Assembly: GCA_000092065.1 (NCBI GenBank)
Contig: CP000597.1
Reading direction: 5' to 3' (one strand)
DNA length: 64,000 nt
From: Ostreococcus lucimarinus
Lineage: Eukaryota
This document shows, piece by piece, positions 1 through 45,900 of the stretch; the stretch's first letter is position 1, and every line of letters begins with the position of its first letter. The position numbers and the translations under genes were made by a program. Under the pieces are notes generated by a model, which did no database searches, was not told the origin of the DNA, and saw only the letters and a program-made list of their open reading frames with translations.

Positions 1-49
1 GGGCGTCGGACGGTCGATCAAGGGCGTGGGGAATCTGCAGCAGACGCTC

Positions 50-1744
50 ATGACGAACATGATGGTGAAGGTCATCGCGGGGGTGTCGGGAACGCTGAGC
101 GGGTTGTTGCTCGCGGGATTGGCGTATAAGGTGGTGGGAGGATATCAAGATGAGATAAAAGAGGCGAGGCGGGAGGTGCAGCGGCAACACCAGGAGAGGA
201 AGGCGCGATTGGCGCAGGTGAGACGATTGCTGAGCGGACCGCTGCGGGCGGCGGCGAAAGATTTGAGAAACAGATTGGAGTTTATATTAAAGGTGCCGCC
301 GAGACGTTCGAGCGGGGAACCGCCGAAGATTCGGGCGAATTATTTTGCGGCGCATTATCCCGATAATCCCAACGAAGCGGTGAATTCGACATTGTTTCGG
401 TTGTGTCGGTATTTGCACTGGGTCGAGCAGTTTCAACGCGGGGTGCAGTTGGAAGGCGTGAGCGAGCAGGACACGTGGCAGTTCGCGTTGGATCAACAGC
501 TTGATCGCGTGGCGATGGAGTTGGAGGTGAGCAACGAGCGCTACGACGCAACTGTACCGACAGAGCGTTTGACTGAGGTTTTCGCGCTCATACACGTTCG
601 TGAGGTGGAGAAGGAGAAGCGAGTCGAGGGCGACGGCGCTGACGACGGCGGAGACGAAGGTGAAAAGTTAGCGAGTAAACGGTCTATTTTTCGCCGAATC
701 GATTCCTCATTGAATGAGAAAACGACGGCAATGGAACCTTTAGAGGCTGCGGATTCGGCACCGAAGCGTCGCGTCGGACTCCTCAGCGCAGAGCCTCAGG
801 AACGTCTCAGTCGATTTCCGATGCGCTTGTTTCGCGACACGCAAGTCGCACTGGCGGAGGTTTTTGGTAAGCTCCACACACTTGAATCCGGCGCTGGTCA
901 GCCTCAACATGAAGGTAAGGTAAACCCGCACATGTTGTACACAGAGTTCGTCATGAAACTCGAAGAGGCGCAAATGCTCTACGAGCGCACCGTGGAAGAA
1001 CAAGCCTCCGAAGGTCTCGTTGATGCAGCCACAGTCTTGGTCGCGCAGCAAGAAAATCTCCAAGCCGATCCGTGGTTTAGATGGATGCTTCCGCTGCAGC
1101 TTCAAATTCGACGCTTGGCCATGCTACAGTCCCAGACGTCCAAGCTGTTAACGAGGAAGGAGGCTCGCGAACTCCTCGCCGCGAGGGCACGTTTGCGCGG
1201 CGTCCTCGACGGCTTGAACGGTTTACTTGACGTGCTCGACAGACGATTGGACGATCCGTTGTTCAACAAGCCCAAACACAATTTAAAGCAAAAGCACTTG
1301 GCGACGGCTAAAATCGCAACGAAGAAGGTAAAGTTGGAGGCGTTGAAGCGCGAAAAGTCACTGGCGCGATGGAACAAGTTGAAACAAGCGATCCCTTACG
1401 TCGCAAAGTATCGCCGCCTTCCACCTCCACCTGCGAGCAAGAGATATATCCGTTTAGTGACAGGAGATGAGTTACTGGCGTTCGTTCGACGGTATAAAGC
1501 GAAAGCCGTGGCGGGCGTCGTCTCTGCGGTGAGCACCGCCGTCGTGAGCACTGTCATCTCGAAAGTTGTCCAGCATCAAAACAAGCGGCCAAAAGCGGTT
1601 GAAATCGTGAAAACCGAGAGCGAAAGCGCTGAAAGCGAAGGCACGACTAAGGAGAAAAAGACGAACGATGAAGCAATCGAAGGTGAATTCGCACCGCCCA
1701 CGAAGACGCGTCCTAGACTTCGCAATAGTGTGAAAGTCAAGTGA
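50..1744 (+). CDS. Hypothetical membrane-anchored protein, family not recognised
   Basis: Uninterrupted ORF 26..1744. The track start is GTG and the frame has no stop back to nt 2, so the true start may lie upstream of the window. First ATG is at 50. Hydrophobic segments: VKVIAGVSGTLSGLLLAGLAY (N-terminal) and AVAGVVSAVSTAVVSTVIS (near the C-terminus). Long charged, coiled-coil-like middle. Confidence 0.5.
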   Translation: MTNMMVKVIAGVSGTLSGLLLAGLAYKVVGGYQDEIKEARREVQRQHQERKARLAQVRRLLSGPLRAAAKDLRNRLEFILKVPPRRSSGEPPKIRANYFAAHYPDNPNEAVNSTLFRLCRYLHWVEQFQRGVQLEGVSEQDTWQFALDQQLDRVAMELEVSNERYDATVPTERLTEVFALIHVREVEKEKRVEGDGADDGGDEGEKLASKRSIFRRIDSSLNEKTTAMEPLEAADSAPKRRVGLLSAEPQERLSRFPMRLFRDTQVALAEVFGKLHTLESGAGQPQHEGKVNPHMLYTEFVMKLEEAQMLYERTVEEQASEGLVDAATVLVAQQENLQADPWFRWMLPLQLQIRRLAMLQSQTSKLLTRKEARELLAARARLRGVLDGLNGLLDVLDRRLDDPLFNKPKHNLKQKHLATAKIATKKVKLEALKREKSLARWNKLKQAIPYVAKYRRLPPPPASKRYIRLVTGDELLAFVRRYKAKAVAGVVSAVSTAVVSTVISKVVQHQNKRPKAVEIVKTESESAESEGTTKEKKTNDEAIEGEFAPPTKTRPRLRNSVKVK

Positions 1745-1781
1745 AGTAGCGGCGACCCGCGCGAAATGTGTAATTAAAACG

Positions 1782-1995
1782 TAAAATCGTAAAGTCTTTG
1801 TCGCTCGTTTTCATCCTCCTTTAAGTTCTTCTAAAGTCTTCTTATTCGCAATCTTGGTCGCTCTGTTAATGGCTCCCGCGGCGTAGTATAAAATCGTAAA
1901 GTCTTTGTCGCTCGTTTTCATCCTCCTTTAAGTTCTTCTAAAGTCTTCTTATTCGCAATCTTGGTCGCTCTGTTAATGGCTCCCGCGGCGTAGTA
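1782..1995. repeat. Perfect tandem duplication, 2 x 107 bp, covering the 3' end of the minus-strand gene
   Basis: Units 1782-1888 and 1889-1995 read identically by eye. Unit 2 carries the last 25 codons plus the stop (1918-1920) of the 1918..4362 gene. Unit 1 is a silent copy in the convergent 3' spacer. Confidence 0.85.
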
Positions 1996-4362
1996 CCACT
2001 CGGCCCACTGTATGACGCCGTCGCCGTTCAAATCAGCCGCTTTGGCAATTTTCTGAACGGTCGCGTTGTGAGAGTCCCACAACTTGGCACCCGGAACGAG
2101 GGTTTCGATGAACATATCAATCGTCTTCGCGAACTGCTCTTGATTGAGGTAGGGGAACGGAAACTTTTCATCCGGATTGGACGCGTTGGCTTCAAACAAC
2201 GCGAAGACCTCTTTGTCGAAATCGATTGCAACCGCCGACCTTGTCTCCGCAGAACCTCCAGCGTTCAAACCAGTGCGAGAGCCGATGGCGAACACATCTT
2301 GCGCGAAAGCTTCGATCGCTGAAACGAGTGATTCGTTCAATGCATCCGTAACCGCCGGCCCTGCAGATTCCATCACAGTCGCTTCGGCTCTTCTACTCAA
2401 ACCCGTGTTGAGTCGATGACCGACGACGGTCACCTCAAAATCAGAAGCTACTTGAGCGACGAAAGCAAGAACAAAAGCGTAAACGTTGCCCATGATCTCT
2501 TGAACCGAAGGGATGTCAGCAAAGTCCTTGGTGATCTCCCTCAACGCTCGCGCGTCCGGACGGAAGCGGCTGAGGTCCTTGACGTCGCGCTTCGGCGCTT
2601 GGCGCACCAGCATTCGGATTCTTCGCCCGAGCATGTCGAGCTCAAAATCGGACAACACTGTAGATAAAATATCCACTATGAGTTCAAAACAGTTAATGTA
2701 CAGCAAACGCTCAATGTTATCGGGAATAGCCTTGACGTTGTACATGGGATCGCGAAGGAGGTAGTCGACAAATTCCGAAATCGCCTCTCGAGTCTGCTTT
2801 TGTGCCTTTTTTCTCGCAGCTCTGCTCGGGTCTTCATCACCGTCGATGCTCACACCCAAAATTTGACGTGCCTCCGAGGCTATGTTGCTAAAGTCGCCTC
2901 TACGAATTTCGTTCCCCATTTGCTGCAGGAGGTCGCGGGCGCTGGGTGTCTTCTTCGCGGCGTCGCCTTCGTCGAATGTCAAGGCGTCGTCGTCGAACGA
3001 CGCTGACACGTTTGCTCCGCTCGACGGACTGAGCACACGCATAGAAATGTTGAAACCCAAGTTACTCAACACGGGCTCTTTTCCTATCTCACCGAACAAG
3101 CCGGTGAGGAGGTTGATGTACGTGTCGCGCTCGATTCGTCGGGGAAGAAACACTGACGAGATGGCCATCGCTCGAGTGTCCATATATTCATCGACGCACA
3201 CTTCGATAAGTTGCTTCACCGCGCGCTGCGTCTCCAAACGATCCTCGTCGGAAAAGGAGATGTTTGCAAACGCCTCTCGAGTATCGTCGTCGTAAGGCTC
3301 TAACGCAAACTCCACGGTGAATCCTTTAATCTTTGCCTCCATCGTGAGCGCCTCGGATAACATACCCACCGCAACCTTGGCGACGTTTTCTTGGAGATGC
3401 GGGAACAGATTTGTCGGTGGCGGGGCTTTGAGCTCTTCGCGCGCAATCTTGCGGAGCGTTTGATTCGACAGATTCGGCACGATGTCTAAGTAGCCGTCGC
3501 CGCTCGCGACGAGCTTAGTCCTTCGCCCTTCCGCCATGCCATCCTCTTCGCTCGACACTTCAAAGACGAATTCCCGGTCGAAAAGTTGCAACTTGAACGT
3601 TTTTAACGTATCTTCGAACACGGTCCATCCCGTGAGCGCGCCGTTCGTGTAGAGCTTCCTTTCGAGCGGCCCGGGTAACAAGACGGGAATCCCGCTCGTT
3701 TCGCCGACGACGTCGCCGATAAACTTTGCGAGCTCCTGCTCCTTGATACCACTCTTTTCCGGAACGTGTCTGGCGTCCAGATAATCGCTCATGATCAGAG
3801 GATGCCCCAAAACGCTCGCTCCGACGAGGTTCTGTCGTAAGTTCTTCATCGCCGACGCGTACGCCGCCTTGCAAACCTCGCGATACACCTCGCTCTCCGC
3901 GAACTCCGGAACGAACGGAATATCGTACGCATCGTTAATAATCTTCGCGTAACGATCCAAAACCTTCGCCTCCGCGGATTTCTTCTTCCCTCTCGACGCC
4001 CTGGCCAGCGCCACCGCGGCGGCCCCTCCCGCGACCGCGACGCCCGCGCCCGCCGCCGCGCTCGCCCCCGCCCCGCGCGTCCCCTCCCGCGCTCGCGCTT
4101 CCGCCGCCGTCGACACCGACGCCACCATCTTCGTCCCATCGCGCGCGCGCGCCGGTCGCAATCCCTCCATCGCGTCCTTCGCCGTCCTCTTCGCGCCCTC
4201 GTCCGTCTTCTTCGCGTTCGCGTTCGCGTTCGCGTTCGCGTTCGCGCGTCCCGCGCCCCGCGCCGGTCGCCCTCGCCGATCGCGCGTCCGTCCGACCCGC
4301 GCGCGCGTCGTCGACCCGCGTCCGCCGGTCGTCGCGCGCGCGCGAGACGCTCGCGTCGCCAT
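1918..4362 (-). CDS. 814-aa protein with a C-terminal EF-hand, otherwise unassigned
   Basis: ATG at 4362 (cat 4360-4362). Long uninterrupted ORF. Canonical 12-residue EF loop DLNGDGVIQWAE at 1999-2034. Arg/Ala-rich N-terminus with an (Ala-Asn)n run, then non-repetitive protein-like sequence of moderate GC. Confidence 0.7.
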   Translation of the reverse strand: MATRASRARATTGGRGSTTRARVGRTRDRRGRPARGAGRANANANANANAKKTDEGAKRTAKDAMEGLRPARARDGTKMVASVSTAAEARAREGTRGAGASAAAGAGVAVAGGAAAVALARASRGKKKSAEAKVLDRYAKIINDAYDIPFVPEFAESEVYREVCKAAYASAMKNLRQNLVGASVLGHPLIMSDYLDARHVPEKSGIKEQELAKFIGDVVGETSGIPVLLPGPLERKLYTNGALTGWTVFEDTLKTFKLQLFDREFVFEVSSEEDGMAEGRRTKLVASGDGYLDIVPNLSNQTLRKIAREELKAPPPTNLFPHLQENVAKVAVGMLSEALTMEAKIKGFTVEFALEPYDDDTREAFANISFSDEDRLETQRAVKQLIEVCVDEYMDTRAMAISSVFLPRRIERDTYINLLTGLFGEIGKEPVLSNLGFNISMRVLSPSSGANVSASFDDDALTFDEGDAAKKTPSARDLLQQMGNEIRRGDFSNIASEARQILGVSIDGDEDPSRAARKKAQKQTREAISEFVDYLLRDPMYNVKAIPDNIERLLYINCFELIVDILSTVLSDFELDMLGRRIRMLVRQAPKRDVKDLSRFRPDARALREITKDFADIPSVQEIMGNVYAFVLAFVAQVASDFEVTVVGHRLNTGLSRRAEATVMESAGPAVTDALNESLVSAIEAFAQDVFAIGSRTGLNAGGSAETRSAVAIDFDKEVFALFEANASNPDEKFPFPYLNQEQFAKTIDMFIETLVPGAKLWDSHNATVQKIAKAADLNGDGVIQWAEWYYAAGAINRATKIANKKTLEELKGG
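4211..4246. repeat. (TTCGCG)6 hexanucleotide microsatellite inside a CDS
   Basis: Six exact hexamers. They encode the ANANANAN run near the N-terminus of the 1918..4362 protein. Confidence 0.9.
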
Positions 4363-4715
4363 CGCGTCCGCGCTCGCCCTTCGTTCGTGCGTTCGTTCGA
4401 GCGATTAATCGATCGATCGGGTCGATGAATCGATCGATTAATCGAGCGGGCGTTCGCGCGCGCGCGCGCTCGATCCGCCGTGTCGTCGCCGCGCGATCGC
4501 GCTCGATCCGCGCGCGCGCGATCGTCCTCGCGCGCGAACGTCTCGAGCTCGCCGCGCGTCCGCGCGGGGGGGAACGATCGCGCGCGACGCGGAAGAGGTC
4601 TGTGTTTTTAGGAGACGTCGATTTTCGACGCGCGACGCGCGCCGCGGAGACCGACGGCGAAACCGCGCGGGTTCGGAATGGATGACGTCGCGCTGTGTAA
4701 AACTGTGACTTTACG

Positions 4716-13275: not shown

Positions 13276-16200
13276 ATGGAGTACGTCGACGCGTCAACGC
13301 TGCGAAAACTGTCGACGTCGGGTGACATCATCATCGTCGACGCGAGCTGGGCGATCGCGAACGACGTCGAGCGCGCGCGCGCGGCGCACGAGAGCGAGCG
13401 CATCCCGAACGCGACGTTTTATGATCACGACGAGGTGTGCGACCTGTCGTCGCCGCTGCCGCAGGCGTTCCCGCCGCGGGAAGCGTTCGCGCGAGGCGTC
13501 GGCGGCGGACTCGGGGCGACGAAGACGCGAGACGTGGCGATATACGCGAAAAACGGCGCGTCTTGCGCGGCGGAGGCGTGTGCGTTCGCGTTCTTGGAAT
13601 ATGGACATCGAGGACGGGTGATGGTGCTCAAGGGAGGGATGGAGGCGTGGAAGGCGGAAGGCTACGAGACGGAGGTCGGGGCGGAGACGATGCGCGAGCG
13701 GGCGACGGTGGAGTACGACGAAGACGGATCGAACGGAACGCGCGAGGGGAAGAAATCGGGATTCGTCGACGCGAAAGATTTGTTGACGAACTTGAGCACG
13801 CAGCGGTTGCAAGTGCTGGATTGCCGACAGTCGGAGGTGTTCGCGGGAGGGGCGAGAGACGCGGCGTACGTTCGGATTCAGGATCGAGCGATTCAGTTCG
13901 AGGGCTTCCGCGAAGGGCACATTCCGGGGGCGAAGAATTTACCGTACACGCGGTTGTTCGACGTCGCGGACGAAAACTTGCGAGAAATATTCGAGGGCGC
14001 GGGGTTGGACCTGTCCATGCCCGTGGCCGTGGTCGGTTCGGGGGGCGTCGACGCGGCGCCGATGGTGGCGTCAGCGCTCACGCGCGCCGGGTGCGCCGAC
14101 GCCGTGGTGCTAAAGAACGGTATGTGTGCGTGGTGCACGGCGCAAGGGAGCTCGTATCCGATGTCCATCGCTAGCACTTCTCCGCACGCTTCGCACAACG
14201 AAAAGCGCCTGATCGTTTGGGCGGTGACTCGATCGCGCGGCACCGCGCTCGAACGCTCGTTCTCTATGCACTCCGAGGCGATGGTCATGCACGAGTTACT
14301 CACGGAGCCGTGCTTGAAGGAGAATAATCCGGAAAATTACGCCAAGATTGTCAGTGGACAATCTGAACATCATGTCGCGAGCAGTGGATGCAGCTATGCG
14401 ACGATGTTAGAGGTGATGACGGCGGATTACTCCGCGCAAGGACGTCCATTCTTCTTCTCCAAAGAGCTGTCGTGTTACTTTGACTTGAAGCAAATGAAGT
14501 CGAGCTGGTTAAAACGGTTCACGCACGTGGTGTTGATTCGACAACCGACGGAAACGATAGAGTCATTTTATCGCGTCTCCATTGAACACAAGGAAGGGAG
14601 CTGCTATTATGATCCATCTGAGGCTGGATTTGCGGAAGCTTTTGGTATCGTAAACGCGTTGAAGCGTATCAATGCCAAGGTTATGGTCGTCGACGCTGAC
14701 GCGGATTTGCTGTCGCGACCAGAGGAGACGCTCCAAGAGATGTGTTCGCTGGCAAACGTGAACTTTGAGAGTTCGATGTTGTCATGGAAGCCCGCAGAGT
14801 TGTCAACGTGGATCAAATTTCGCGGTTGGCACGACGATGCGGCGAGATCGAGCGAGTTCAAAGCTGTCGACAAGGCACCGATGCAAAACGTACCGCCGGA
14901 ACTCTGCGTCGATGCGGCGAAGCAACAACCGTATTACGACGCCATAGGGTGGGAGCGCAAAGAAACTTCCAAGCGTTGGCCGTTCTTACGCCAGCTCACG
15001 AATCCGACGCATCGGTTCTCCGTCGTCGTGTGCGCATCGGATGAAGGCGCTATGGATATGTTCCCTCGTCTTGCCGCCGCGCGTCTGAGCGGCGTCAACT
15101 TGTACGAGTTCAAGCCGAGCGAAGTTGATCAGGCGATGAATAAATGCCCGTATATTTTCGACGACCCGATCGTTCTAGTGGGCGCACACGGACCCACGCT
15201 GCACATGGCCGAGGCACTGCGCGAGCGTGCGCAGAAGGACGGAACTTTGTGCATCGTACGCATAGTTCTCGTCGACGCTTCGGCGCATCGCGTTCGACCC
15301 GAAGGATTCGAGCACAGCTGGGTCCCAGAAGATTCGCTCAAGGATCAAACCAGCATGGACGAAGTTTTACAGAGTATTTTAGTCGACATCGAAACGGCAC
15401 AAAGCAAAAGTGCGAAGGAGATGGCGGATGTGAACGCGTTAGCCTCGACGACGACGTCGGCGGCGACGCACTGGCGCTCGGGTTTGGCGACGGCGTTGCA
15501 AGACGCTCGCTCCGACAAACCTTGCGTTACAGATGCGACGAGTACGTACACGATGAAAGAAGTGTACTCGCGTGCGTATCACGTCGCAGATATGCTCACC
15601 GAACGCGGTGCGCTGAACTCTCGTGTGGGTTTGTTTGTGCAAGCCTCCGCGGCGTCGGTGTGGTGCGCCATGGGTTCACTCTTGTGTGAATCTGTGTTTT
15701 GCGAAATCCCCGCGTGGTATCGCGACACCGACCTCGAACGCGTGTTGCGTTTGAACGAGTCGAAAGTCATAATAACTTCTCGTGATCTCGTGCAGTTCGT
15801 ACCCACCGCGTACAGAGACTTGGTCGTGGTCGTCGAGGACATGGAGTACGACGTCGACTTGAGCGGCGAGCTTCATCCGGCGCTGACGCGTCCTGACACT
15901 CCCGATGCCCCCGGGTTCTCCGTACTCACCAGTGGCACTACTGGTGTGAGTAAAATTCTGTGCTGTCCACAATCCGCGCTGACGGACTCGCAATCGGTCA
16001 TTGGGCCACACATGCGTGGCGACGATGTCATGGGGAGCTTTTGGGTCTATTATTACTTCTTCATTCCGCTCCTCGCTGGTCGCACGCTGAGCGTCATCCC
16101 GAACGATTTCTTCCTCAAGCCCCGAGAGTTGATTTCGTATGTGCGAAGTCAAAAAATGACCATGCTTTACCTCAGTCCGAGTATCCTGGAGAGCTGTTTG

Positions 16201-19200
16201 TTGCACTGCACGCCGCAAGAGTTCTCCGAAGGGATGCAAGACGTGCACACAATTTTATTGACCGGTGAACGCGTGCGAAGAGAGACTCGTATGCTTCTCG
16301 CCGAGCGTCTCACCCGTACGCGTTTGATTGACGTGTACAGCACGAACGAAACGGGTGATTTGGCGATATCTGATTACGGTGGAGCGTTCTTCCTGCGTGA
16401 GGGCACGCAAGCGCGCGTGTTGACGGATGACGGCAAGCCAGCTGTTCGCGGCACCGTCGGCCAGCTTCACGTTAAAAAGAGTGGTTTGCTCGTTGGCTTC
16501 TACACGGATAACGGTTACGCGAAGATCGAAAGCGAGTGGTATCCAACTGGCGATCTCGTTCGTTGGTTAGGTCGCAACAGGTTGACTTTTGAATCTCGTC
16601 AAAAGTCGGCATACGTCAAGATTCGTGGCTTCAAGGTTTCGCCGGTCATGGTACAAGACGTCATGCTCAAGATGCCAGTGATTAAACAGGCCATCGTGAG
16701 CACGATCGGACAGTCTGACATTGACCAGCAACTCGTCGCTGCTATCTCCTTCAACAACGGTGCGCGAGCGAAGGAGAGCGAATTGCGGGCACACATGGCA
16801 GCGCACGTGCCGCACTACATGATTCCGTCGACGTTTTACGACCTCGGCAACAAAGTGTCCACAGCTACCTCTGGTAAAGTGGTCAAGCTTGATGTCGATA
16901 GGCTGGACAAAATCACCGATAGTAACGAAGTGCAACTGACTACAAAGCAAAATGAGGTCGTGGAGGTGTGGCGCCAAGTGTTAGATCAACCGGAGAAGAA
17001 CTTCGCGGCGACGGAGAGCTTTTTCGACTACGGCGGAAGCTTGAAATTTGTTGAGCTTGCGGCGGCACTTTCGAAGAAATGGGGGGTGAGTTTGACGGTT
17101 CCCGAAGTCATCGCCAAGCCGACGCTGGCTGAGATGGCCCTACTTATGGAAGATTATAAAAACGCCAAGTTTGAGCCCGAGGTCGAAGTCGCAAAGTATG
17201 ACTTTTCCGAGTTCAAGCGAGCGCCAAAGAAGAATACTGCGGCGGGCAAGAAGAATATTCTCCTTACCGGCGCTACTGGTTTTCTTGGTGCGTACTTGCT
17301 TCAAGAACTCGCCGCAAGCGATGAAATTGATCAGATTTACGCTATCGTGCGCGCAAAAGACAAGTTTGCGGCGCAAAATCGCGTGCTCGATGTCTTCCGT
17401 AAGCGCGGGCTCACGTTTACCGATCAAATAACGCAAAAGACAACGTTCATGTGTGGTGACATGTCAATGCCGTTGTACGACATACCCGAAGCCACGCTCG
17501 CGCCAGTTTTGGAAGTGATTGACGTTGTCATCAGCGGTGGCGCGGAAGTCAATATGGTGAAGTCTTATTCAGCGTTAGAAAAGGTAAACGTCGGAGGAAC
17601 GTTCAACGGGCTCGAGATCGCGTCGCGCGCCGGCGCTAGACACGTTCTCATTTCCACGCAGTATCCGCTTCCGGGTGAAGTTTCAACGGGATACCGACGA
17701 AGTAAAGAGGTCGCGGAGATGCTATGCGAGCGCGCGCAGAAAGAAGTTGGCGTTGAGTCGGCCGTTTTATTGTTTGGTGACATCGGTATTTCTCGTGCCG
17801 TCGGTTCGCTCGCGCCCGACGATGACTACATCGTCATCTTCCTCCGCGCCTGCCTCGCGACAGGTTTCTTCCCACGTACCGAGTGGGCTGTTAGTATCTT
17901 GTGCGTCGATGATTGCGTGAAGATGCTCACGTCAATCTCATTATCCGGCCAAGTCGATCGTTATGCGTTTGACGGCGTCGCGCGTGAAGTAAAGGGTAAA
18001 CTGATGCCGTTTTCTCAACTTTACGAATGGCTCTCCAAGGAGTACGCGTTGCAGCTGTGCAGCTACGATGGCTGGCTCAATGCAGTTAAGGCTGGCGCCG
18101 CCGAAGGCAACACGATCCTTCAGCGCGCGCTCCTGACGATTGATTCCATGGAAGTCGAACTCAGAGCGGAGGGTGAGCACTTCAACTCGCAGGCGGCGTC
18201 AGATGCGCTCTTCTCCGTGGACGAAGCGTGGGGTAAGAACCTCGTCGGTGCGCTAATTCTCGAACTCTACAGCGAACTTCAAAATGACGACAAAGACACC
18301 ACCATCGGCTTCGCCGCGTTGGCGCAAGGCGAAGATTTGGTTCCGTTCAAGTATCGCCTCCCAGACATGACCCCGACGTCTGTCGAGGTGAAGGTCGAGT
18401 ACTGCGGCTTGTGCGGAAGTGATGATCACTTGATCGTGGGTGACTATGGTGAATATGCGGTGTGGCCGCAAGTTTGCGGACACGAAGTCGTGGGTACGGT
18501 CACCCAAGTTGGCACGGCGGTGACGACGCTAAAAGCCGGTCAACGCGTTGGCGTCGGCTGGCAGAGCTCGTCTTGCCACGATTGCGAGTGGTGCGCGCGA
18601 GGCGATGAGCAGCTGTGCTCTAGTGTCGGTTGTACATGCTGCGAAGGTAACAAAGGTGGTTTCGCCGATCGCATGCGCTTAAACGACTCGCAATTCTGCT
18701 ACAAAATCCCAGACGCGCTGTCTTCCGCGGAAGTCGCGCCGTTGCTATGCGGTGGCCAAACCGTTTGGACGCCTTTGAACGAGCAAACGAAGTCTAGCGA
18801 TCGCGTCGGCATTCTCGGCCTCGGTGGACTCGGTCACATGGCCATCAAGTTCGCCAAGGCGCTCGGTCGAGAAGTCACCGCGATTTCGTCTTCGGCGTCG
18901 AAGCGCGCCGACGCCCTGTCGCACGGCGCGTCGCGCTTTTTGGTGCACACCAACCAAGAAGAGATGGATGCCGCCGCCTCATCGCTCGACTTCATCCTAG
19001 TCACCATCGCCACGAATAAAGAGGTGGACTTCGCGAAGTTTTTCCCCTTGTTACGCCCGCGTGGGACGATTTGTTTCGTCGGCATGTGCCCTCCCATCCA
19101 AGCCGACGTCTTCACTCTCGGCTTCACCATGAACAACATCACAACGAGTAACACCGGGGGCAAAAAGGACATGGTTCAAATGCTCGAATTCTGCGCCCGA

Positions 19201-19374
19201 CACAAGATCGGCGCCTCCGTCGCCGTGAGTCCGCTCAGCGAGATCAACACCGCCATCACGGCTTTGCGCACGGGCGAATCCCACTTCCGACACGTCCTCG
19301 TCAACGACGTCTCGAGCGGTAGTCAACACCGTCGCATGGCCAGCGCCTTCGGCAGCGGCTTCCCTTCCCGTTAA
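13276..19374 (+). CDS. Multidomain megasynthase: rhodanese x2 - sulfotransferase-like - adenylation - carrier - thioester reductase - Zn alcohol dehydrogenase
   Basis: ATG at 13276 and a single 2,032-codon ORF. Rhodanese pair spans about 13276-14150. Sulfotransferase-like PAPS motifs: VTRSRGTAL (about 14220) and VVLIRQPTETIESFYR (about 14527-14575). A-domain cores: TSGTTGVSK (15928-15954), YSTNETGD, YPTGDL, KIRGFKV, SGKVVKLD. Carrier FFDYGGSLKF with Ser codon at 17038-17040. R domain LLTGATGFLGAYL (about 17260) and YRRSK (about 17691). ADH motifs GLCGSDDH (about 18405), CGHEVVG, GLGGLGH (about 18817). Confidence 0.9.
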   Translation: MEYVDASTLRKLSTSGDIIIVDASWAIANDVERARAAHESERIPNATFYDHDEVCDLSSPLPQAFPPREAFARGVGGGLGATKTRDVAIYAKNGASCAAEACAFAFLEYGHRGRVMVLKGGMEAWKAEGYETEVGAETMRERATVEYDEDGSNGTREGKKSGFVDAKDLLTNLSTQRLQVLDCRQSEVFAGGARDAAYVRIQDRAIQFEGFREGHIPGAKNLPYTRLFDVADENLREIFEGAGLDLSMPVAVVGSGGVDAAPMVASALTRAGCADAVVLKNGMCAWCTAQGSSYPMSIASTSPHASHNEKRLIVWAVTRSRGTALERSFSMHSEAMVMHELLTEPCLKENNPENYAKIVSGQSEHHVASSGCSYATMLEVMTADYSAQGRPFFFSKELSCYFDLKQMKSSWLKRFTHVVLIRQPTETIESFYRVSIEHKEGSCYYDPSEAGFAEAFGIVNALKRINAKVMVVDADADLLSRPEETLQEMCSLANVNFESSMLSWKPAELSTWIKFRGWHDDAARSSEFKAVDKAPMQNVPPELCVDAAKQQPYYDAIGWERKETSKRWPFLRQLTNPTHRFSVVVCASDEGAMDMFPRLAAARLSGVNLYEFKPSEVDQAMNKCPYIFDDPIVLVGAHGPTLHMAEALRERAQKDGTLCIVRIVLVDASAHRVRPEGFEHSWVPEDSLKDQTSMDEVLQSILVDIETAQSKSAKEMADVNALASTTTSAATHWRSGLATALQDARSDKPCVTDATSTYTMKEVYSRAYHVADMLTERGALNSRVGLFVQASAASVWCAMGSLLCESVFCEIPAWYRDTDLERVLRLNESKVIITSRDLVQFVPTAYRDLVVVVEDMEYDVDLSGELHPALTRPDTPDAPGFSVLTSGTTGVSKILCCPQSALTDSQSVIGPHMRGDDVMGSFWVYYYFFIPLLAGRTLSVIPNDFFLKPRELISYVRSQKMTMLYLSPSILESCLLHCTPQEFSEGMQDVHTILLTGERVRRETRMLLAERLTRTRLIDVYSTNETGDLAISDYGGAFFLREGTQARVLTDDGKPAVRGTVGQLHVKKSGLLVGFYTDNGYAKIESEWYPTGDLVRWLGRNRLTFESRQKSAYVKIRGFKVSPVMVQDVMLKMPVIKQAIVSTIGQSDIDQQLVAAISFNNGARAKESELRAHMAAHVPHYMIPSTFYDLGNKVSTATSGKVVKLDVDRLDKITDSNEVQLTTKQNEVVEVWRQVLDQPEKNFAATESFFDYGGSLKFVELAAALSKKWGVSLTVPEVIAKPTLAEMALLMEDYKNAKFEPEVEVAKYDFSEFKRAPKKNTAAGKKNILLTGATGFLGAYLLQELAASDEIDQIYAIVRAKDKFAAQNRVLDVFRKRGLTFTDQITQKTTFMCGDMSMPLYDIPEATLAPVLEVIDVVISGGAEVNMVKSYSALEKVNVGGTFNGLEIASRAGARHVLISTQYPLPGEVSTGYRRSKEVAEMLCERAQKEVGVESAVLLFGDIGISRAVGSLAPDDDYIVIFLRACLATGFFPRTEWAVSILCVDDCVKMLTSISLSGQVDRYAFDGVAREVKGKLMPFSQLYEWLSKEYALQLCSYDGWLNAVKAGAAEGNTILQRALLTIDSMEVELRAEGEHFNSQAASDALFSVDEAWGKNLVGALILELYSELQNDDKDTTIGFAALAQGEDLVPFKYRLPDMTPTSVEVKVEYCGLCGSDDHLIVGDYGEYAVWPQVCGHEVVGTVTQVGTAVTTLKAGQRVGVGWQSSSCHDCEWCARGDEQLCSSVGCTCCEGNKGGFADRMRLNDSQFCYKIPDALSSAEVAPLLCGGQTVWTPLNEQTKSSDRVGILGLGGLGHMAIKFAKALGREVTAISSSASKRADALSHGASRFLVHTNQEEMDAAASSLDFILVTIATNKEVDFAKFFPLLRPRGTICFVGMCPPIQADVFTLGFTMNNITTSNTGGKKDMVQMLEFCARHKIGASVAVSPLSEINTAITALRTGESHFRHVLVNDVSSGSQHRRMASAFGSGFPSR

Positions 19375-36950: not shown

Positions 36951-39900
36951 ATGCGGCTCGACGACGGCGACGACGCGCGACGAAGGGACGCGCGCGCGGT
37001 TCGAGCGCGCGCGACGCGGACGCCGACGCGCGCGGCGACCACGCGCGGCGATGTCGTCGACGCCGCTGCCGCCGATGATGACATCGACGACGACGCCGTC
37101 GCGCGACCGGACGCGACGCGACGACGACGACGCGACGACGACGCGACGACGACGACGCGCGATGATGAGACGACGCGCGCGCGAGAGGGCGCGAGCGGAC
37201 GCCGGCGAGCGCGGGAACGAGGGAGAGCGACGAGGCGTCGTCGACGGCTCGGGACGGCGGCGGCGGCGGCGGCGACGGCGGCGTTGGCGGCGACGGTCGA
37301 GCGCGTCGGCGTGGACGCGTCGACGGCGCTCACGAAGGGGGTGGCGAGGAATGGTTTCGTGTCGTCGAGCGGGTATAAGTACTATAAGGTGAATGTGGCG
37401 TGCGTGGAGGCGGCGCAGCCGCTGACGTTGGAGCTGACGACGAGCAACGGGGACGCGAACTTGTACGTGTCTCGATCGGCGCAGCCGACGACTTCGTCGT
37501 ACGAACAGCGGAGCGTGAACGTTGGAAATGCGTTGGATTCGGTGACGATCACGAGTCCGGTGAATGGGTACTATTACGTGAGCGTGTACGGCGCGCTGTC
37601 CAGCACGTACAAGCTTCGAGCGCTCACGACGATGTTTACCGGGAAACATCCGTGCACGGGATTTCGAATCACCGATAGCGACGTCTCGAGCGTTGGCTCG
37701 GGATCTGGAAATCAGTTCATACTGCAAGAAGCGCTCACCGCGAGCGCGGCGGCGGGATTCACCGCGGATGTGTCCGTCGACGGCGACGTCATCCTCGGCG
37801 ACGCGTACACCGATTCGGTGACGGCGAAAGGAGAGCTCAAGCTCGGCGTGACGGACAGTACGTACTACGCCATCACGCGACAATCGCCGAGCGCACCGAG
37901 CAGCAACCCGGGCGGCGCTTTGTCGATCGTCGGCGCGAACGCGACCTATCAGGGGGGATCGGTAAAGATTCTCGGCGGAACGGGCGGTTCGGGGGCGGGC
38001 GGCGACGTCGTGATCGAGGCGGGGTCGGCGTCTGGCGGCAACGGTGGCGATTTGAAGTTACGTGGCGGCACGTCGAACTCAGGAACGGGCGGCGACGTCG
38101 TCATAGATGCCGGAGATAGCACGACACAAGCATCTTCGTACGAGGGCATCATTCACATAGGTCCAACTTCTGCGTCGTTTGTGCGCGTCGGCGAGAGTTC
38201 AAATAAGCAAGTTCAAACCGATATTTTCGGCGACTTGACGGTGCACGGAAATCTCTTGACAACGAATGATGTGGTGTACGCGAACAGCTACACGAGTTAC
38301 GTGCAGGTTTCAACCTCTCAAGACGGCATGTTTCATCAAGAAGTGCGCGCGCCAAAGATTACAGGTCTGGACGCGGAGGACATCACGGGCACTCCAACGA
38401 GCACGTTGACTTTAGACGCTGGCATGCGAGGGAGTCAGCAACACGTCGTGATCGCTCCGAGCGAGGCAACGGCGGTTTACATAGGTAGCAGCACATCCAC
38501 GATTCCGGTCTCGATAAGGCAAGGCGCGAACGCAGGAGACGTGCGAGTGCACGCTGATGGCAGCGGCGCGCTGTCCGTGACTTCGGCCGCAGGGCAGGAC
38601 CTGACGCTCGCGTCCGGCGACGACGTGGTGGTGACCACCGCGGCGAGTAAGACGCTCGCGCTGAAGCAGGACTCGACGAGCATTTTGAGCTGGGACGCGG
38701 CCGGCGCTGTGACTGTGAACTCCGTGAGCGGGCAGGACCTGACGCTGAGCACGGGCGGTAGCGCGGCCGTGACTGTGGACTCGACCGGGCAGGTGGGCAT
38801 CGGGACGACGACGCCGGGGAAGACGCTGGACGTCACCGGGACGGCGCGCGTGAGTGGCGCGACGACGCTGAGTAGCACGCTTGACGTGACTGGCGCTACG
38901 ACGCTCGCATCCGTGGGCGTGACCGGTGCGGCCACCGTCGGCGGGACTTTAGGTGTGACTGGCGCTACGACGCTCGCATCCGTGGGCGTGACCGGCGCGG
39001 CCACCGTCGGCGGGACTTTAGGTGTGACTGGCGCTACGACGCTCGCATCCGTGGGCGTGACCGGCGCGGCCACCGTCGGCACGACGCTCGGCGTGACTGG
39101 CGCTACGACGCTCACCGGCGACGTGACGATGAGCAACGACTTGACCGTGAGCGGTGCGCTTACTGTGACATCTGATGCCGCTGTGAGTTTGACCTCTGCA
39201 AGTGGTTCGGACGTGAGCTTGACGAGCGCCGGTACGGGTGGCATCGTGTTGACGTCGACGGACGACATCACGCTCGATGCTGCCGATGATGTGACGATCG
39301 ATGCCGCCGGTGCTTTGTCTTTGGAGCAGGGCGGGACGAGTATTTTGAGCTGGACCGACACCGGCGCTGTGACTTTGAACTCCTTAGGCGGGCAGACCCT
39401 GAGCGTGTCGAGCCTCAGCTCGGCCGGGAACGCGGGCGCCGTGAGCGTGTCCGGCGGCACGACGACTGGGACGTCCTCGAACACCGGCGGCGACTTGACG
39501 CTGCAATCTGGCGGCGCGCCCGCTGGCAGCGTGAACGGTGACGTTCTGGTGGACTCGGCCACTGGTCTAGGCACCGCCGGCTCGATCACGCTTCGCCAGG
39601 GGGTGGGCGGTGAGCGTGTTTCTGTGGACGCGAACGGCGCCGTGAGTCTGGACACGCACTCCGGGCAGGACCTGACGCTGAGCACGGGCGGTAGCGCGGC
39701 CGTGACTGTGGACTCGACCGGGCAGGTGGGCATCGGGACGACGACGCCGGGGAAGACGCTGGACGTCACCGGGACGGCGCGCGTGAGTGGCGCGACGACG
39801 CTGAGTAGCACGCTTGGCGTGACTGGCGCTACGACGCTCGCATCCGTGGGCGTGACCGGTGCGGCCACCGTCGGCGGGACTTTAGGTGTGACTGGCGCTA

Positions 39901-42900
39901 CGACGCTCGCATCCGTGGGCGTGACCGGCGCGGCCACCGTCGGCACGACGCTCGGCGTGACTGGCGCTACGACGCTCACCGGCGACGTGACGATGAGCAA
40001 CGACTTGACCGTGAGCGGTGCGCTTACTGTGACATCTGATGCCGCTGTGAGTTTGACCTCTGCAAGTGGTTCGGACGTGAGCTTGACGAGCGCCGGTACG
40101 GGTGGCATCGTGTTGACGTCGACGGACGACATCACGCTCGATGCTGCCGATGATGTGACGATCGATGCCGCCGGTGCTTTGTCTTTGGAGCAGGGCGGGA
40201 CGAGTATTTTGAGCTGGACCGACACCGGCGCTGTGACTTTGAACTCCTTAGGCGGGCAGACCCTGAGCGTGTCGAGCCTCAGCTCGGCCGGGAACGCGGG
40301 CGCCGTGAGCGTGTCCGGCGGCACGACGACTGGGACGTCCTCGAACACCGGCGGCGACTTGACGCTGCAATCTGGCGGCGCGCCCGCTGGCAGCGTGAAC
40401 GGTGACGTTCTGGTGGACTCGGCCACTGGTCTAGGCACCGCCGGCTCGATCACGCTTCGCCAGGGGGTGGGCGGTGAGCGTGTTTCTGTGGACGCGAACG
40501 GCGCCGTGAGTCTGGACACGCACTCCGGGCAGGACCTGACGCTGAGCACGGGCGGTAGCGCGGCCGTGACTGTGGACTCGACCGGGCAGGTGGGCATCGG
40601 GACGACGACGCCGGGGAAGACGCTGGACGTCACCGGGACGGCGCGCGTGAGTGGCGCGACGACGCTGAGTAGCACGCTTGGCGTGACTGGCGCTACGACG
40701 CTCGCATCCGTGGGCGTGACCGGTGCGGCCACCGTCGGCGGGACTTTAGGTGTGACTGGCGCTACGACGCTCGGCGGGACTTTAGGTGTGACTGGCGCTA
40801 CGACGCTCGCATCCGTGGGCGTGACCGGCGCGGCCACCGTCGGCACGACGCTTGGCGTGACTGGCGCTACGACGCTCGGCGGGACTTTAGGTGTGACTGG
40901 CGCTACGACGCTCGCATCCGTGGGCGTGACCGGCGCGGCCACCGTCGGCACGACGCTCGGCGTGACTGGCGCTACGACGCTCGCATCTGTGGGCGTGACC
41001 GGTGCGGCCACCGTCGGCGGGACTTTAGGTGTGACTGGCGCTACGACGCTCACCGGCGACGTGACGATGAGCAACGACTTGACCGTGAGCGGTGCGCTTA
41101 CTGTGACATCTGATGCCGCTGTGAGTTTGACCTCTGCAAGTGGTTCGGACGTGAGCTTGACGAGCGCCGGTACGGGTGGCATCGTGTTGACGTCGACGGA
41201 CGACATCACGCTCGATGCTGCCGATGATGTGACGATCGATGCCGCCGGTGCTTTGTCTTTGGAGCAGGGCGGGACGAGTATTTTGAGCTGGACCGACACC
41301 GGCGCTGTGACTTTGAACTCCTTAGGCGGGCAGACCCTGAGCGTGTCGAGCCTCAGCTCGGCCGGGAACGCGGGCGCCGTGAGCGTGTCCGGCGGCACGA
41401 CGACTGGGACGTCCTCGAACACCGGCGGCGACTTGACGCTGCAATCTGGCGGCGCGCCCGCTGGCAGCGTGAACGGTGACGTTCTGGTGGACTCGGCCAC
41501 TGGTCTAGGCACCGCCGGCTCGATCACGCTTCGCCAGGGGGTGGGCGGTGAGCGTGTTTCTGTGGACGCGAACGGCGCCGTGAGTCTGGACACGCACTCC
41601 GGGCAGGACCTGACGCTGAGCACGGGCGGTAGCGCGGCCGTGACTGTGGACTCGACCGGGCAGGTGGGCATCGGGACGACGACGCCGGGGAAGACGCTGG
41701 ACGTCACCGGGACGGCGCGCGTGAGTGGCGCGACGACGCTGAGTAGCACGCTTGGCGTGACTGGCGCTACGACGCTCGCATCCGTGGGCGTGACCGGTGC
41801 GGCCACCGTCGGCGGGACTTTAGGTGTGACTGGCGCTACGACGCTCGGCGGGACTTTAGGTGTGACTGGCGCTACGACGCTCGCATCCGTGGGCGTGACC
41901 GGTGCGGCCACCGTCGGCGGGACTTTAGGTGTGACTGGCGCTACGACGCTCGGCACGACGCTCGGCGTGACTGGCGCTACGACGCTCGCATCCGTGGGCG
42001 TGACCGGCGCGGCCACCGTCGGCACGACGCTCGGCGTGACTGGCGCTACGACGCTCACCGGCGACGTGACGATGAGCAACGACTTGACCGTGAGCGGTGC
42101 GCTTACTGTGACATCTGATGCCGCTGTGAGTTTGACCTCTGCAAGTGGTTCGGACGTGAGCTTGACGAGCGCCGGTACGGGTGGCATCGTGTTGACGTCG
42201 ACGGACGACATCACGCTCGATGCTGCCGATGATGTGACGATCGATGCCGCCGGTGCTTTGTCTTTGGAGCAGGGCGGGACGAGTATTTTGAGCTGGACCG
42301 ACACCGGCGCTGTGACTTTGAACTCCTTAGGCGGGCAGACCCTGAGCGTGTCGAGCCTCAGCTCGGCCGGGAACGCGGGCGCCGTGAGCGTGTCCGGCGG
42401 CACGACGACTGGGACGTCCTCGAACACCGGCGGCGACTTGACGCTGCAATCTGGCGGCGCGCCCGCTGGCAGCGTGAACGGTGACGTTCTGGTGGACTCG
42501 GCCACTGGTCTAGGCACCGCCGGCTCGATCACGCTTCGCCAGGGGGTGGGCGGTGAGCGTGTTTCTGTGGACGCGAACGGCGCCGTGAGTCTGGACACGC
42601 ACTCCGGGCAGGACCTGACGCTGAGCACGGGCGGTAGCGCGGCCGTGACTGTGGACTCGACCGGGCAGGTGGGCATCGGGACGACGACGCCGGGGAAGAC
42701 GCTGGACGTCACCGGGACGGCGCGCGTGAGTGGCGCGACGACGCTGAGTAGCACGCTTGGCGTGACTGGCGCTACGACGCTCGGCGGGACTTTAGGTGTG
42801 ACTGGCGCTACGACGCTCGCATCCGTGGGCGTGACCGGCGCGGCCACCGTCGGCACGACGCTCGGCGTGACTGGCGCTACGACGCTCGCATCCGTGGGCG

Positions 42901-45900
42901 TGACCGGCGCGGCCACCGTCGGCACGACGCTCGGCGTGACTGGCGCTACGACGCTCACCGGCGACGTGACGATGAGCAACGACTTGACCGTGAGCGGTGC
43001 GCTTACTGTGACATCTGATGCCGCTGTGAGTTTGACCTCTGCAAGTGGTTCGGACGTGAGCTTGACGAGCGCCGGTACGGGTGGCATCGTGTTGACGTCG
43101 ACGGACGACATCACGCTCGATGCTGCCGATGATGTGACGATCGATGCCGCCGGTGCTTTGTCTTTGGAGCAGGGCGGGACGAGTATTTTGAGCTGGACCG
43201 ACACCGGCGCTGTGACTTTGAACTCCTTAGGCGGGCAGACCCTGAGCGTGTCGAGCCTCAGCTCGGCCGGGAACGCGGGCGCCGTGAGCGTGTCCGGCGG
43301 CACGACGACTGGGACGTCCTCGAACACCGGCGGCGACTTGACGCTGCAATCTGGCGGCGCGCCCGCTGGCAGCGTGAACGGTGACGTTCTGGTGGACTCG
43401 GCCACTGGTCTAGGCACCGCCGGCTCGATCACGCTTCGCCAGGGGGTGGGCGGTGAGCGTGTTTCTGTGGACGCGAACGGCGCCGTGAGTCTGGACACGC
43501 ACTCCGGGCAGGACCTGACGCTGAGCACGGGCGGTAGCGCGGCCGTGACTGTGGACTCGACCGGGCAGGTGGGCATCGGGACGACGACGCCGGGGAAGAC
43601 GCTGGACGTCACCGGGACGGCGCGCGTGAGTGGCGCGACGACGCTGAGTAGCACGCTTGGCGTGACTGGCGCTACGACGCTCGCATCCGTGGGCGTGACC
43701 GGTGCGGCCACCGTCGGCGGGACTTTAGGTGTGACTGGCGCTACGACGCTCGCATCCGTGGGCGTGACCGGCGCGGCCACCGTCGGCACGACGCTCGGCG
43801 TGACTGGCGCTACGACGCTCGCATCCGTGGGCGTGACCGGCGCGGCCACCGTCGGCACGACGCTTGGCGTGACTGGCGCTACGACGCTCGGCGGGACTTT
43901 AGGTGTGACTGGCGCTACGACGCTCGCATCCGTGGGCGTGACCGGCGCGGCCACCGTCGGCACGACGCTCGGCGTGACTGGCGCTACGACGCTCGCATCT
44001 GTGGGCGTGACCGGTGCGGCCACCGTCGGCGGGACTTTAGGTGTGACTGGCGCTACGACGCTCACCGGCGACGTGACGATGAGCAACGACTTGACCGTGA
44101 GCGGTGCGCTTACTGTGACATCTGATGCCGCTGTGAGTTTGACCTCTGCAAGTGGTTCGGACGTGAGCTTGACGAGCGCCGGTACGGGTGGCATCGTGTT
44201 GACGTCGACGGACGACATCACGCTCGATGCTGCCGATGATGTGACGATCGATGCCGCCGGTGCTTTGTCTTTGGAGCAGGGCGGGACGAGTATTTTGAGC
44301 TGGACCGACACCGGCGCTGTGACTTTGAACTCCTTAGGCGGGCAGACCCTGAGCGTGTCGAGCCTCAGCTCGGCCGGGAACGCGGGCGCCGTGAGCGTGT
44401 CCGGCGGCACGACGACTGGGACGTCCTCGAACACCGGCGGCGACTTGACGCTGCAATCTGGCGGCGCGCCCGCTGGCAGCGTGAACGGTGACGTTCTGGT
44501 GGACTCGGCCACTGGTCTAGGCACCGCCGGCTCGATCACGCTTCGCCAGGGGGTGGGCGGTGAGCGTGTTTCTGTGGACGCGAACGGCGCCGTGAGTCTG
44601 GACACGCACTCCGGGCAGGACCTGACGCTGAGCACGGGCGGTAGCGCGGCCGTGACTGTGGACTCGACCGGGCAGGTGGGCATCGGGACGACGACGCCGG
44701 GGAAGACGCTGGACGTCACCGGGACGGCGCGCGTGAGTGGCGCGACGACGCTGAGTAGCACGCTTGACGTGACTGGCGTTACGACGCTCGCATCCGTGGG
44801 CGTGACCGGTGCGGCCACCGTCGGCACGACGCTCGGCGTGACTGGCGCTACGACGCTCGCATCCGTGGGCGTGACCGGTGCGGCCACCGTCGGCGGGACT
44901 TTAGGTGTGACTGGCGCTACGACGCTCGGCACGACGCTCGGCGTGACTGGCGCTACGACGCTCGCATCCGTGGGCGTGACCGGCGCGGCCACCGTCGGCA
45001 CGACGCTCGGCGTGACTGGCGCTACGACGCTCACCGGCGACGTGAGCGTCGGGACTTCCTCGGCTTTGAGTTTTGGTTCTGCAACCCGGCAGATGATCAA
45101 CTTATATGGAACAAACAACGCCATCGGCGTGCAATCGTCCACGATGTATTTTCGTAGTGCTTATAACTTTGCCTTTTTTGAAGGCGGCGTGTACACCAAC
45201 ACAGAGCTCGATCCGGGTTCGGGTGGCACTTTGCGCATGATGATTCAGAAAACCACGGGCAACGTCGGTATCGGGACGGCGAGTCCAGATTATGAACTCG
45301 ACGTGGTAGGCGATATCAACTTTTCTGGGAATCTCTATCAGGGTGGTTCGCTGTTTGCCTCCCCCTGGACGGAGAGCAGCGGTAACGTGTATCGCAGTAG
45401 CGGTAACGTCGGCATCGGGCTGACGAATCCGACCTACAATCTGCACGTTGCTGGAACGGGGCGCGTTAGTACGACGCTATCGGTGGGTCAAGATTTAACC
45501 ATCGACACGGCTGGCGACTTGAACTTTGCGGCGACGCATCGTCAGATGATCAACCTCCGCGTCGGCGCCGAGGGTTTCGGGATCGGGACGCAGATGGACA
45601 CGACGTACTTTCGCTCTCCGGGCCACTTTGCGTTCTACGAAGACGGAACGCACAGCACCACTGACTTGGACGCGAACGGTGGCACCGCGCGTCTGGTGAT
45701 CAGGAGCGGCGGGAAGGTGGGCATCGGGCGGACGAATCCGAGCTATGATCTCGACGTGGTAGGCGATATCAACTTTTCTGGGAATCTCTATCAGGGCGGT
45801 TCTCTGTTCCCGTCCCCCTCCCCCTGGACGGAGAGCGGCAGTAACGTGTATCGTAGTAGCGGTAACGTCGGCATCGGGCTGACGAATCCGAGCTACAAAC

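Follow-up and report, generated by a model that had tools for sequence, protein, structure and literature searches.

An aspartate-less, aromatic A4 segment in a predicted NRPS-like carboxylate reductase of the alga Ostreococcus lucimarinus

An A4 segment without the alpha-amino-binding Asp

Which acid is selected by an adenylation (A) domain that lacks the Asp by which nonribosomal peptide synthetases (NRPS) hold the alpha-amino group of their substrates? The question is raised by an intron-less open reading frame (ORF) of 2032 aa in a 64,000-nt stretch of Ostreococcus lucimarinus DNA (GenBank assembly GCA_000092065.1, contig CP000597.1; hereafter the window), in which an earlier note had found the aromatic run S-F-W-V-Y-Y-Y-F-F at the A4 position of an A domain. 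We consider it highly probable that this A4 run without Asp is genuine and conserved and belongs to a functional reductase. The broader reading, namely that the motif is the remodelled A4 of a gate-keeping A domain in an NRPS-like carboxylate-to-alcohol reductase with a cationic substrate, has in our judgment an even chance of being correct as a whole. The ORF and the relevant parts of its A domain are as follows:

13276-19374 (+): single intron-less ORF of 2032 aa, domain order Rhod-Rhod-ST-X-A-T-R-ADH (rhodanese, rhodanese, sulfotransferase, X, adenylation, carrier, thioester reductase and alcohol dehydrogenase domains; Pfam and NCBIfam)
15505-16890 (+): A domain, aa 744-1205 (Pfam AMP-binding, AlphaFold2 (AF2) model, Foldseek)
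15925-15954 (+): core A3, LTSGTTGVSK, aa 884-893
16036-16062 (+): A4-position motif S921-F-W-V-Y-Y-Y-F-F929, codons 921-929
16336-16362 (+): variant A5 core Y-S-T-N-E-T-G-D-L, containing D1028
16357-16359 (+): D1028, specificity-code position 330, invariant in the family
16876-16878 (+): K1201, the A10 lysine, code position 517

The Pfam AMP-binding family matched the ORF at 4e-26. The AF2 model of aa 720-1220 (mean predicted local distance difference test score, pLDDT, 91.4) had the two-subdomain fold of the ANL superfamily (acyl-CoA synthetases, NRPS adenylation domains and luciferases), and Foldseek placed the domain close to PltF, EntF, PheA and DltA at E ~1e-33, with aryl-acid and coenzyme A (CoA) ligase structures at similar scores. 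Cores A3 (LTSGTTGVSK), A7 (YPTGDLVR) and A8 (VKIRGFKV) were invariant in the family described below, and the A10 Lys was found in SGK1201. Thus the domain shares its fold and its cores A3, A7, A8 and A10 with GrsA-PheA (1AMU) and TycA, whereas it has no FDxS and no Asp235, carries Trp at position 236, reads YSTNE at A5 and is only ~23% identical to them.

Codons 921-929 matched the reported motif exactly, and they lay between core A3 and the helix bearing code position 239 (aligned with the W239-E240 helix of TycA and PheA), which is the A4 position. The F-D-x-S with Asp235 that characterizes an amino-acid-activating A4 was absent: no Asp or Glu was present in the S-F-W-V linker between strand and helix in any family member. 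To this extent the earlier note was borne out. It had further assigned the Trp to position 235 and assumed the canonical spacing of ~37 residues after A3, and both details needed revision. The A3-to-A4 spacing was 8 residues shorter than canonical. Pairwise phmmer alignments with solved A domains gave conflicting registers: Asp235 faced Trp in one of them and Phe in a gap-free alignment to FscH, and others put FDxS in an insertion. When a profile of six family members was aligned by hhalign with one of 121 canonical A domains including TycA, the flanking anchors GDRVG/DRIG and YYYFFIPLLAG/VWEMFMALLSG were solid, and between them the family had four residues (S-F-W-V) compared with ten in canonical domains. 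Therefore the family has a six-residue deletion, which removes the canonical M-S-F-D-A-S (the FDxS strand) and thus leaves Asp235 without a strict equivalent.

In the AF2 model a strand at 918-921 was followed by coil at F922-W923 and by a helix from V924. Counting back along this predicted helix sets F922 closest to 235, W923 at 236 and Y926 at 239. Since the modelled secondary structure and the FscH alignment agreed, Phe is a likelier "replacement" for the Asp than Trp, and the register proposed at first was probably off by one. The helix with position 239 and the motifs with positions 278, 299/301, 322 and 330/331 aligned easily to canonical A domains. The specificity code that the earlier note had proposed to extract by alignment could be read by hhalign at these positions, with aromatics at 236 and 239 and Asp at 330, but not at 235.

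Conservation of the motif

Among 1.8 billion representatives, exhaustive searching with HMMER revealed just five relatives that stood out from the generic NRPS background, and a further 54 loci came from scanning metagenomes for the pattern; word-indexed searches with the A domain or the family profile returned only generic A domains, at most 26% identical. Thirteen lineages were distinguished: three Ostreococcus-like, two Bathycoccus-like and eight represented by eukaryotic contigs or transcripts of unassigned origin (31-39% identity). The pattern G-[SL]-F-W-x-Y-Y was conserved in all thirteen, down to ~31% identity. At the level of single residues, F922, W923, Y925, Y926, T996 (301) and D1028 (330) were invariant, Y927 was kept in 12 lineages, and K1201 (517) was Lys in nine of the ten lineages with sequence covering the position (Gly in L051). 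Code position 278 was Ser or Thr across the family, while position 299 (residue 994) was Trp in every lineage outside Mamiellales, which have Leu or Met there. Among 121 randomly drawn canonical A domains, Asp235 was found in 113, Asp330 in three and Trp236 in none. The three with Asp330 carried the code DIWSxTADD, which we take to be of the diaminobutyrate type, with the acidic 330/331 pair holding a short cationic side chain. As judged from these alignments, the motif is conserved and not a product of chance.

The A-T-R part also occurs alone: stand-alone A-T-R proteins were found (P0148, the MMETSP transcript P0194 and P0307). Two GC-rich members, L051 (3961-5013) and L053 (4260-5306), carry after A-T-R a C-terminal multi-pass hydrophobic domain of ~300 aa. 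The two membrane domains are 32% identical to each other and share the motifs RPHAC, DR...ELS and EESLW; a Pfam search with them gave no significant match, the one sub-threshold hit being FLILHELTA in L053 (E 0.017).

Linkage of A-T-R to an alcohol dehydrogenase and a sulfotransferase

The domains that act with the A domain in the proposed pathway are:

16954-17139 (+): carrier (T/PCP) domain, aa 1227-1288; phosphopantetheine is expected on Ser1255 of FFDYGGSL
17254-18108 (+): thioester reductase (R) domain, aa 1327-1611; TGATGFLG at 1331 and YRRSK at 1473
18307-19299 (+): Zn-dependent Ahr-like aldehyde reductase (alcohol dehydrogenase, ADH), aa 1678-2008; CGLCGSD, GHE, four-Cys structural Zn site, GLGGLG
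14203-14955 (+): sulfotransferase (ST) domain with the fold of sulfotransferases using 3'-phosphoadenosine 5'-phosphosulfate (PAPS), Sulfotransfer_5; 5'-phosphosulfate-loop-like motif W-A-V-T-R-S-R-G-T

The R domain matched TIGR01746 at 1.5e-44 and is a thioester reductase of the NAD_binding_4 type, while the ADH matched NF047908 of NCBIfam at 3.9e-95 as well as Pfam ADH_N/ADH_zinc_N. All catalytic signatures 3' of the A domain were intact (Ser1255, TGATGFLG, YRRSK, both ADH zinc sites and GLGGLG), and the elements of an A-T-R carboxylic acid reductase, i.e., an A domain, Ser1255, TGxxGxxG and YxxxK, were all present. Carboxylic acid reductases and Lys2-type enzymes share this architecture and the NAD_binding_4 thioester reductase chemistry; however, they stop at the aldehyde and take aryl or aliphatic acids or alpha-aminoadipate, whereas the window enzyme has an aldehyde reductase built in, and its pocket is of the aromatic/Asp type.

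The ADH is linked to A-T-R in different ways: i) C-terminal in one ORF in the window protein and in L057 (A-T-R-ADH); ii) N-terminal in L055 (ADH-A-T-R, single ORF); iii) as a separate gene in L003, a TARA scaffold on which the A-T-R gene stands head-to-head with a divergent, intron-containing ADH gene (1-1423 (-) and 1564-4656 (+)). The linked ADHs were 51-64% identical to the window ADH, compared with only ~32% for the A-T-R parts. Thus three independent arrangements provide strong comparative evidence for reduction from acid to aldehyde to alcohol. Moreover, the ADH reading frame of L003 runs straight into a sulfotransferase N-terminus (PILLWAPPRSTSTAFERA), forming an ADH-ST fusion, and the sulfotransferase therefore belongs in the same pathway, where most simply it would sulfate the alcohol. 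The window ST has both the fold and the 5'-phosphosulfate-binding loop of a PAPS-dependent sulfotransferase. From these fusions and gene arrangements, A-T-R, ADH and ST appear to form one pathway leading from acid to aldehyde and alcohol and then probably to an O-sulfate.

By exact-sequence look-up, the identical 2032-aa protein was found on many marine contigs, in a cluster of 220 marine sequences. The same cluster includes O. lucimarinus XP_001422100.1 / ABP00417.1, a 408-aa model that covers only the C-terminal ADH end, which places the window in the nuclear DNA of Ostreococcus. The public gene model thus appears truncated, as the gene calls from metagenomes and transcriptomes extend over all 2032 aa, and the enzyme is annotated publicly only as an [quoted passage not shown].

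Candidate substrates of the predicted reductase

Since the linker carries no Asp or Glu in any member, an ordinary alpha-amino acid is an unlikely substrate, and on this point the sequences agree with the earlier note. The closest functional parallel is ATRR, a fungal enzyme (AN5318 of A. nidulans) that reduces glycine betaine to choline and accepts the sulfonium analogue more slowly (Hai et al.). The A domain of ATRR, 34% identical to its TycA template, lacks Asp235 and holds glycine betaine in a cation-pi cage of F201, W204 and W270 with E304 (Hai et al.). Like ATRR, the window enzyme has A-T-R followed by a second reductase, for two sequential two-electron reductions from acid to alcohol, and it combines the absence of Asp235 with aromatics at 236/239/299-type positions and one acidic residue deep in the pocket (the ATRR side being placed by residue numbers); the counterparts here would be W923 (236), Y926 (239), W/L/M994 (299) and D1028 (330). 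Unlike in ATRR, i) the second reductase is a Zn-dependent ADH of the medium-chain dehydrogenase/reductase (MDR) type and not an R2 of the short-chain (SDR) type, which is a departure from A-T-R1-R2 with equivalent function; ii) the position of the ADH varies (C-terminal, N-terminal or separate gene); iii) the A4 has the six-residue deletion and the FWxYYY signature, and the acidic residue is Asp instead of Glu; iv) rhodanese, sulfotransferase and flavodoxin-like modules are added in the window protein. It is best described as a variant of the NRPS-like reductases with a deletion-made pocket and a modular Zn-ADH and ST, accompanied in Mamiellales by a Cys-less rhodanese and a flavodoxin-like module and in two distant members by a membrane domain.

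The parallel with ATRR and the invariant Asp330, taken as buried, therefore make a small cationic carboxylate without alpha-amino group the best-supported substrate class, and we put its probability slightly above even. The cation-pi cage for an onium carboxylate suggested in the earlier note has gained the support of the invariant D1028, the Trp at 299 outside Mamiellales, the ATRR parallel, the T-R-ADH context and the dimethylsulfoniopropionate (DMSP) and lipid data given below. Several of the Tyr and Phe residues of the run lie on a helix, however, and they cannot all face the pocket.

The mechanism that we propose would proceed as follows. The six-residue deletion removed the FDxS strand that presents Asp235 to the alpha-amino group, as alignment and modelled secondary structure show. 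The pocket would instead be lined by Phe922, Trp923, Tyr926, a Trp at position 299 in most relatives and the invariant Asp1028, as predicted from the alignment, a layout of cation-pi cage plus counter-charge that would probably suit a small onium carboxylate lacking the alpha-amino group. In keeping with the intact motifs and the repeated independent fusions, the A domain may then adenylate the acid and load it on the carrier Ser1255, from which the R domain would release it as the aldehyde, and the fused Zn-ADH would reduce this to the alcohol. Finally the ST module, which is ADH-linked also in a distant eukaryote, would probably O-sulfate the alcohol.

Within the cationic class, we tentatively propose DMSP, with the chances nonetheless against it; its product would be 3-dimethylsulfoniopropanol, the head-group alcohol of the lipid phosphatidyldimethylpropanethiol (PDPT). 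DMSP is favoured because of several lines of evidence: i) both DMSP and DSYE, a gene for its synthesis, are present in O. tauri, and Bathycoccus has DSYE as well; ii) PDPT is the main non-plastid phospholipid of O. tauri, whose non-plastid lipids are reported as diacylglyceryl hydroxymethyltrimethyl-beta-alanine (DGTA) and PDPT rather than phosphatidylcholine (PC); iii) the PDPT head-group ion, C5H14O4PS+ (m/z 201.034), is phospho-3-dimethylsulfoniopropanol, i.e., DMSP reduced by four electrons; iv) sulfonium alcohols can enter phospholipids via ordinary head-group pathways. A literature search found no paper on a DMSP reductase, dimethylsulfoniopropanol, PDPT biosynthesis, a DMSP-PDPT link or an Ostreococcus NRPS-like enzyme. 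As a best-guess order, glycine betaine or another algal betaine comes next after DMSP.

Several points weigh against a cationic substrate or against DMSP in particular: i) consecutive helix residues cannot all face the pocket, and the pocket-facing aromatics were deduced rather than seen in coordinates; ii) Mamiellales, including Ostreococcus itself, carry Leu or Met and not Trp at 299; iii) the correspondence of F201, W204, W270 and E304 of ATRR to 236, 239, 299 and 330 is a putative one, derived from residue-number spacing and not from alignment; iv) a lipid head-group destination leaves the linked sulfotransferase without an obvious role, and we know of no sulfate ester of dimethylsulfoniopropanol among metabolites; v) no Micromonas-like family member was seen in the searches, although Micromonas makes DMSP; vi) the distant members are taxonomically unassigned, which makes a correlation of the family with PDPT producers conjectural.

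The main rival is an algal counterpart of ATRR, in which glycine betaine would be reduced to choline and the ST would make choline-O-sulfate, a known osmolyte and sulfur store. We hold it to be unlikely, though it matches the ATRR-type logic and the linkage of A-T-R, ADH and ST, and ATRR-like transcripts have been reported in marine eukaryotes. Sulfotransferases that act on choline are moreover known, and PMC12442346 describes choline-O-sulfate as environmentally ubiquitous. On the other hand, as O. tauri has DGTA and PDPT rather than PC outside its plastids, its choline demand is unclear, and no report of choline-O-sulfate in these algae was found in a literature search. The Zn-ADH in place of an SDR R2, the six-residue A4 deletion and the ~23% identity to TycA (compared with 34% for ATRR-A) also differ, and the enzyme is therefore not obviously an ATRR orthologue.

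The substrate might also carry no positive charge. The aromatics would then serve mainly for helix packing or as a hydrophobic wall against which an aryl, aliphatic or hydroxy acid is bound, with D1028 hydrogen-bonded to a hydroxyl. In agreement, aryl, keto or hydroxy acids are the substrates of most A domains lacking Asp235 that have been characterised (Hai et al.), and the aryl-acid and CoA-ligase structures scored similarly in Foldseek. However, Asp330 is invariant in thirteen lineages and taken as buried, the canonical sample has it only in codes with two acidic residues, and the Trp/Tyr/Trp plus Asp pattern parallels a proven betaine binder, ATRR; we consequently doubt this explanation and rate it as unlikely.

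For a beta- or omega-amino acid (beta-alanine, gamma-aminobutyric acid (GABA) or similar), the primary amine would be held by D1028 and the amino alcohol then O-sulfated. The acidic residue would in effect have moved from 235 to 330, where, together with 331, it goes with short cationic side chains in canonical codes (which we in part presume), and beta-aminoacyl-ACP synthetases were among the PDB matches. Yet known beta-alanine codes keep an Asp next to 235, e.g., LDWSVSLAD, which was seen here, and VDWVISLADK, a known beta-Ala code. So dense an aromatic lining is also more typically met around quaternary or tertiary onium groups than around a primary amine, and we regard this substrate class as distinctly unlikely.

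That the A domain is a degenerate, non-catalytic relic in a fusion protein and the motif without functional meaning, as the deviating A5 core (YSTNE vs NxYGPTE) and the loss of the catalytic Cys in the adjacent rhodanese module might suggest, is very improbable given that A3, A7, A8, the A10 Lys, the T-domain Ser, the R-domain Tyr/Lys and the ADH zinc ligands are intact, and that the motif is strongly conserved over ~31-100% identity and found in stand-alone A-T-R proteins and transcripts. Anionic substrates of the cysteate, sulfolactate or 2,3-dihydroxypropane-1-sulfonate (DHPS) type were considered because sulfur-related domains are present, and were judged unlikely, with a conserved Asp in the pocket and no basic residues at the code positions.

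If the pocket does bind an onium carboxylate, ATRR-type betaine reduction would extend from fungi and nematodes to marine algae. NRPS enzymology gains a second, apparently independent, Asp235-less specificity pocket of aromatic and acidic residues. Were DMSP the substrate, the enzyme would explain the source of the PDPT head group and represent a new sink, a non-lyase, non-demethylation fate of DMSP in the marine sulfur cycle, as the sulfur counterpart of the betaine-to-choline route. A DMSP reductase family that makes the PDPT head group in Ostreococcus, Bathycoccus and probably haptophyte-like algae is a doubtful proposition at present, and the same doubt covers its corollary that the linked ST makes a new sulfonium sulfate-ester zwitterion or activates the alcohol for transfer. 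Few eukaryotic phytoplankton are as abundant as Ostreococcus and Bathycoccus, and the enzyme is found on hundreds of marine contigs; the FWxYYY / YSxNExGD signature provides a simple probe for such enzymes in meta-omic data.

Rhodanese, sulfotransferase and X modules

Two further modules, one on either side of the ST domain, complete the protein:

13282-14139 (+): tandem rhodanese module, 3-mercaptopyruvate sulfurtransferase (MST)-like, aa 3-288 (Pfam/NCBIfam)
14983-15432 (+): X domain, flavodoxin/CheY-like alpha/beta fold of ~150 aa, no Pfam/NCBIfam assignment

The tandem rhodanese matched mammalian MST at ~1e-18 and shares its tandem fold, but in the C-terminal rhodanese the residue aligned to the catalytic Cys of MST is Gly254 (14035-14037). 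Only one sister Ostreococcus species (80% identical) has Cys at this position; Bathycoccus has Ala, and the Cys is absent in the stand-alone Rhod-ST-X paralogues. This lack of conservation led us to reject rhodanese catalysis or persulfide chemistry as a conserved function of the pathway; the alignment suggests that the module is probably non-catalytic and perhaps anion-binding.

Similarity of the ST to those of CurM and the olefin synthases and to tyrosylprotein sulfotransferases was marginal (E 0.004). Unlike the CurM-type ST, it is not followed by a thioesterase, and in Mamiellales it is always coupled to the Cys-less rhodanese. Mamiellales also encode stand-alone Rhodanese-ST-X proteins (P0312-P0328; P0317 is that of O. 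tauri, 567 aa), which share 40-50% identity with the window protein over its aa ~170-720 and have many invariant ST residues, among them KELSCYFD, SFYRV and KFRGWH. In these paralogues the X domain is conserved together with the ST.

Genomic context

The neighbours of the gene in the window encode a PWWP protein, PIP5K, ubiquilin and a four-domain ion channel, all ordinary eukaryotic genes, and gene-cluster context was therefore rejected as a clue to function. The GC content of the gene (0.56) was below that of its flanks, while GC at third codon positions (GC3, 0.68) equalled that of the neighbours, and horizontal transfer was rejected on this account. The Bathycoccus-like loci with an orthologue (L032-L049, L052 and L054) had only 39-41% GC over 9-17 kb, which is presumably below the Bathycoccus genome average and might mean a location on the outlier chromosome. 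On L001, a low-coverage contig of a sister Ostreococcus, the orthologue is split by frameshifts into many small gene calls; the flanking PWWP, PIP5K and ubiquilin genes are kept, and the locus is thus syntenic.

Elsewhere in the window, a stretch of 62-68% GC with strong GC skew holds a 3364-aa ORF (36951-47045 (+)) whose only domain match is PPC (pre-peptidase C-terminal); it is mirrored by a 2221-aa antisense ORF (38477-45142 (-)) and probably encodes a giant repetitive extracellular protein. Adjoining it at 47164-52740 (-) is a four-repeat ion channel of the voltage-gated type.

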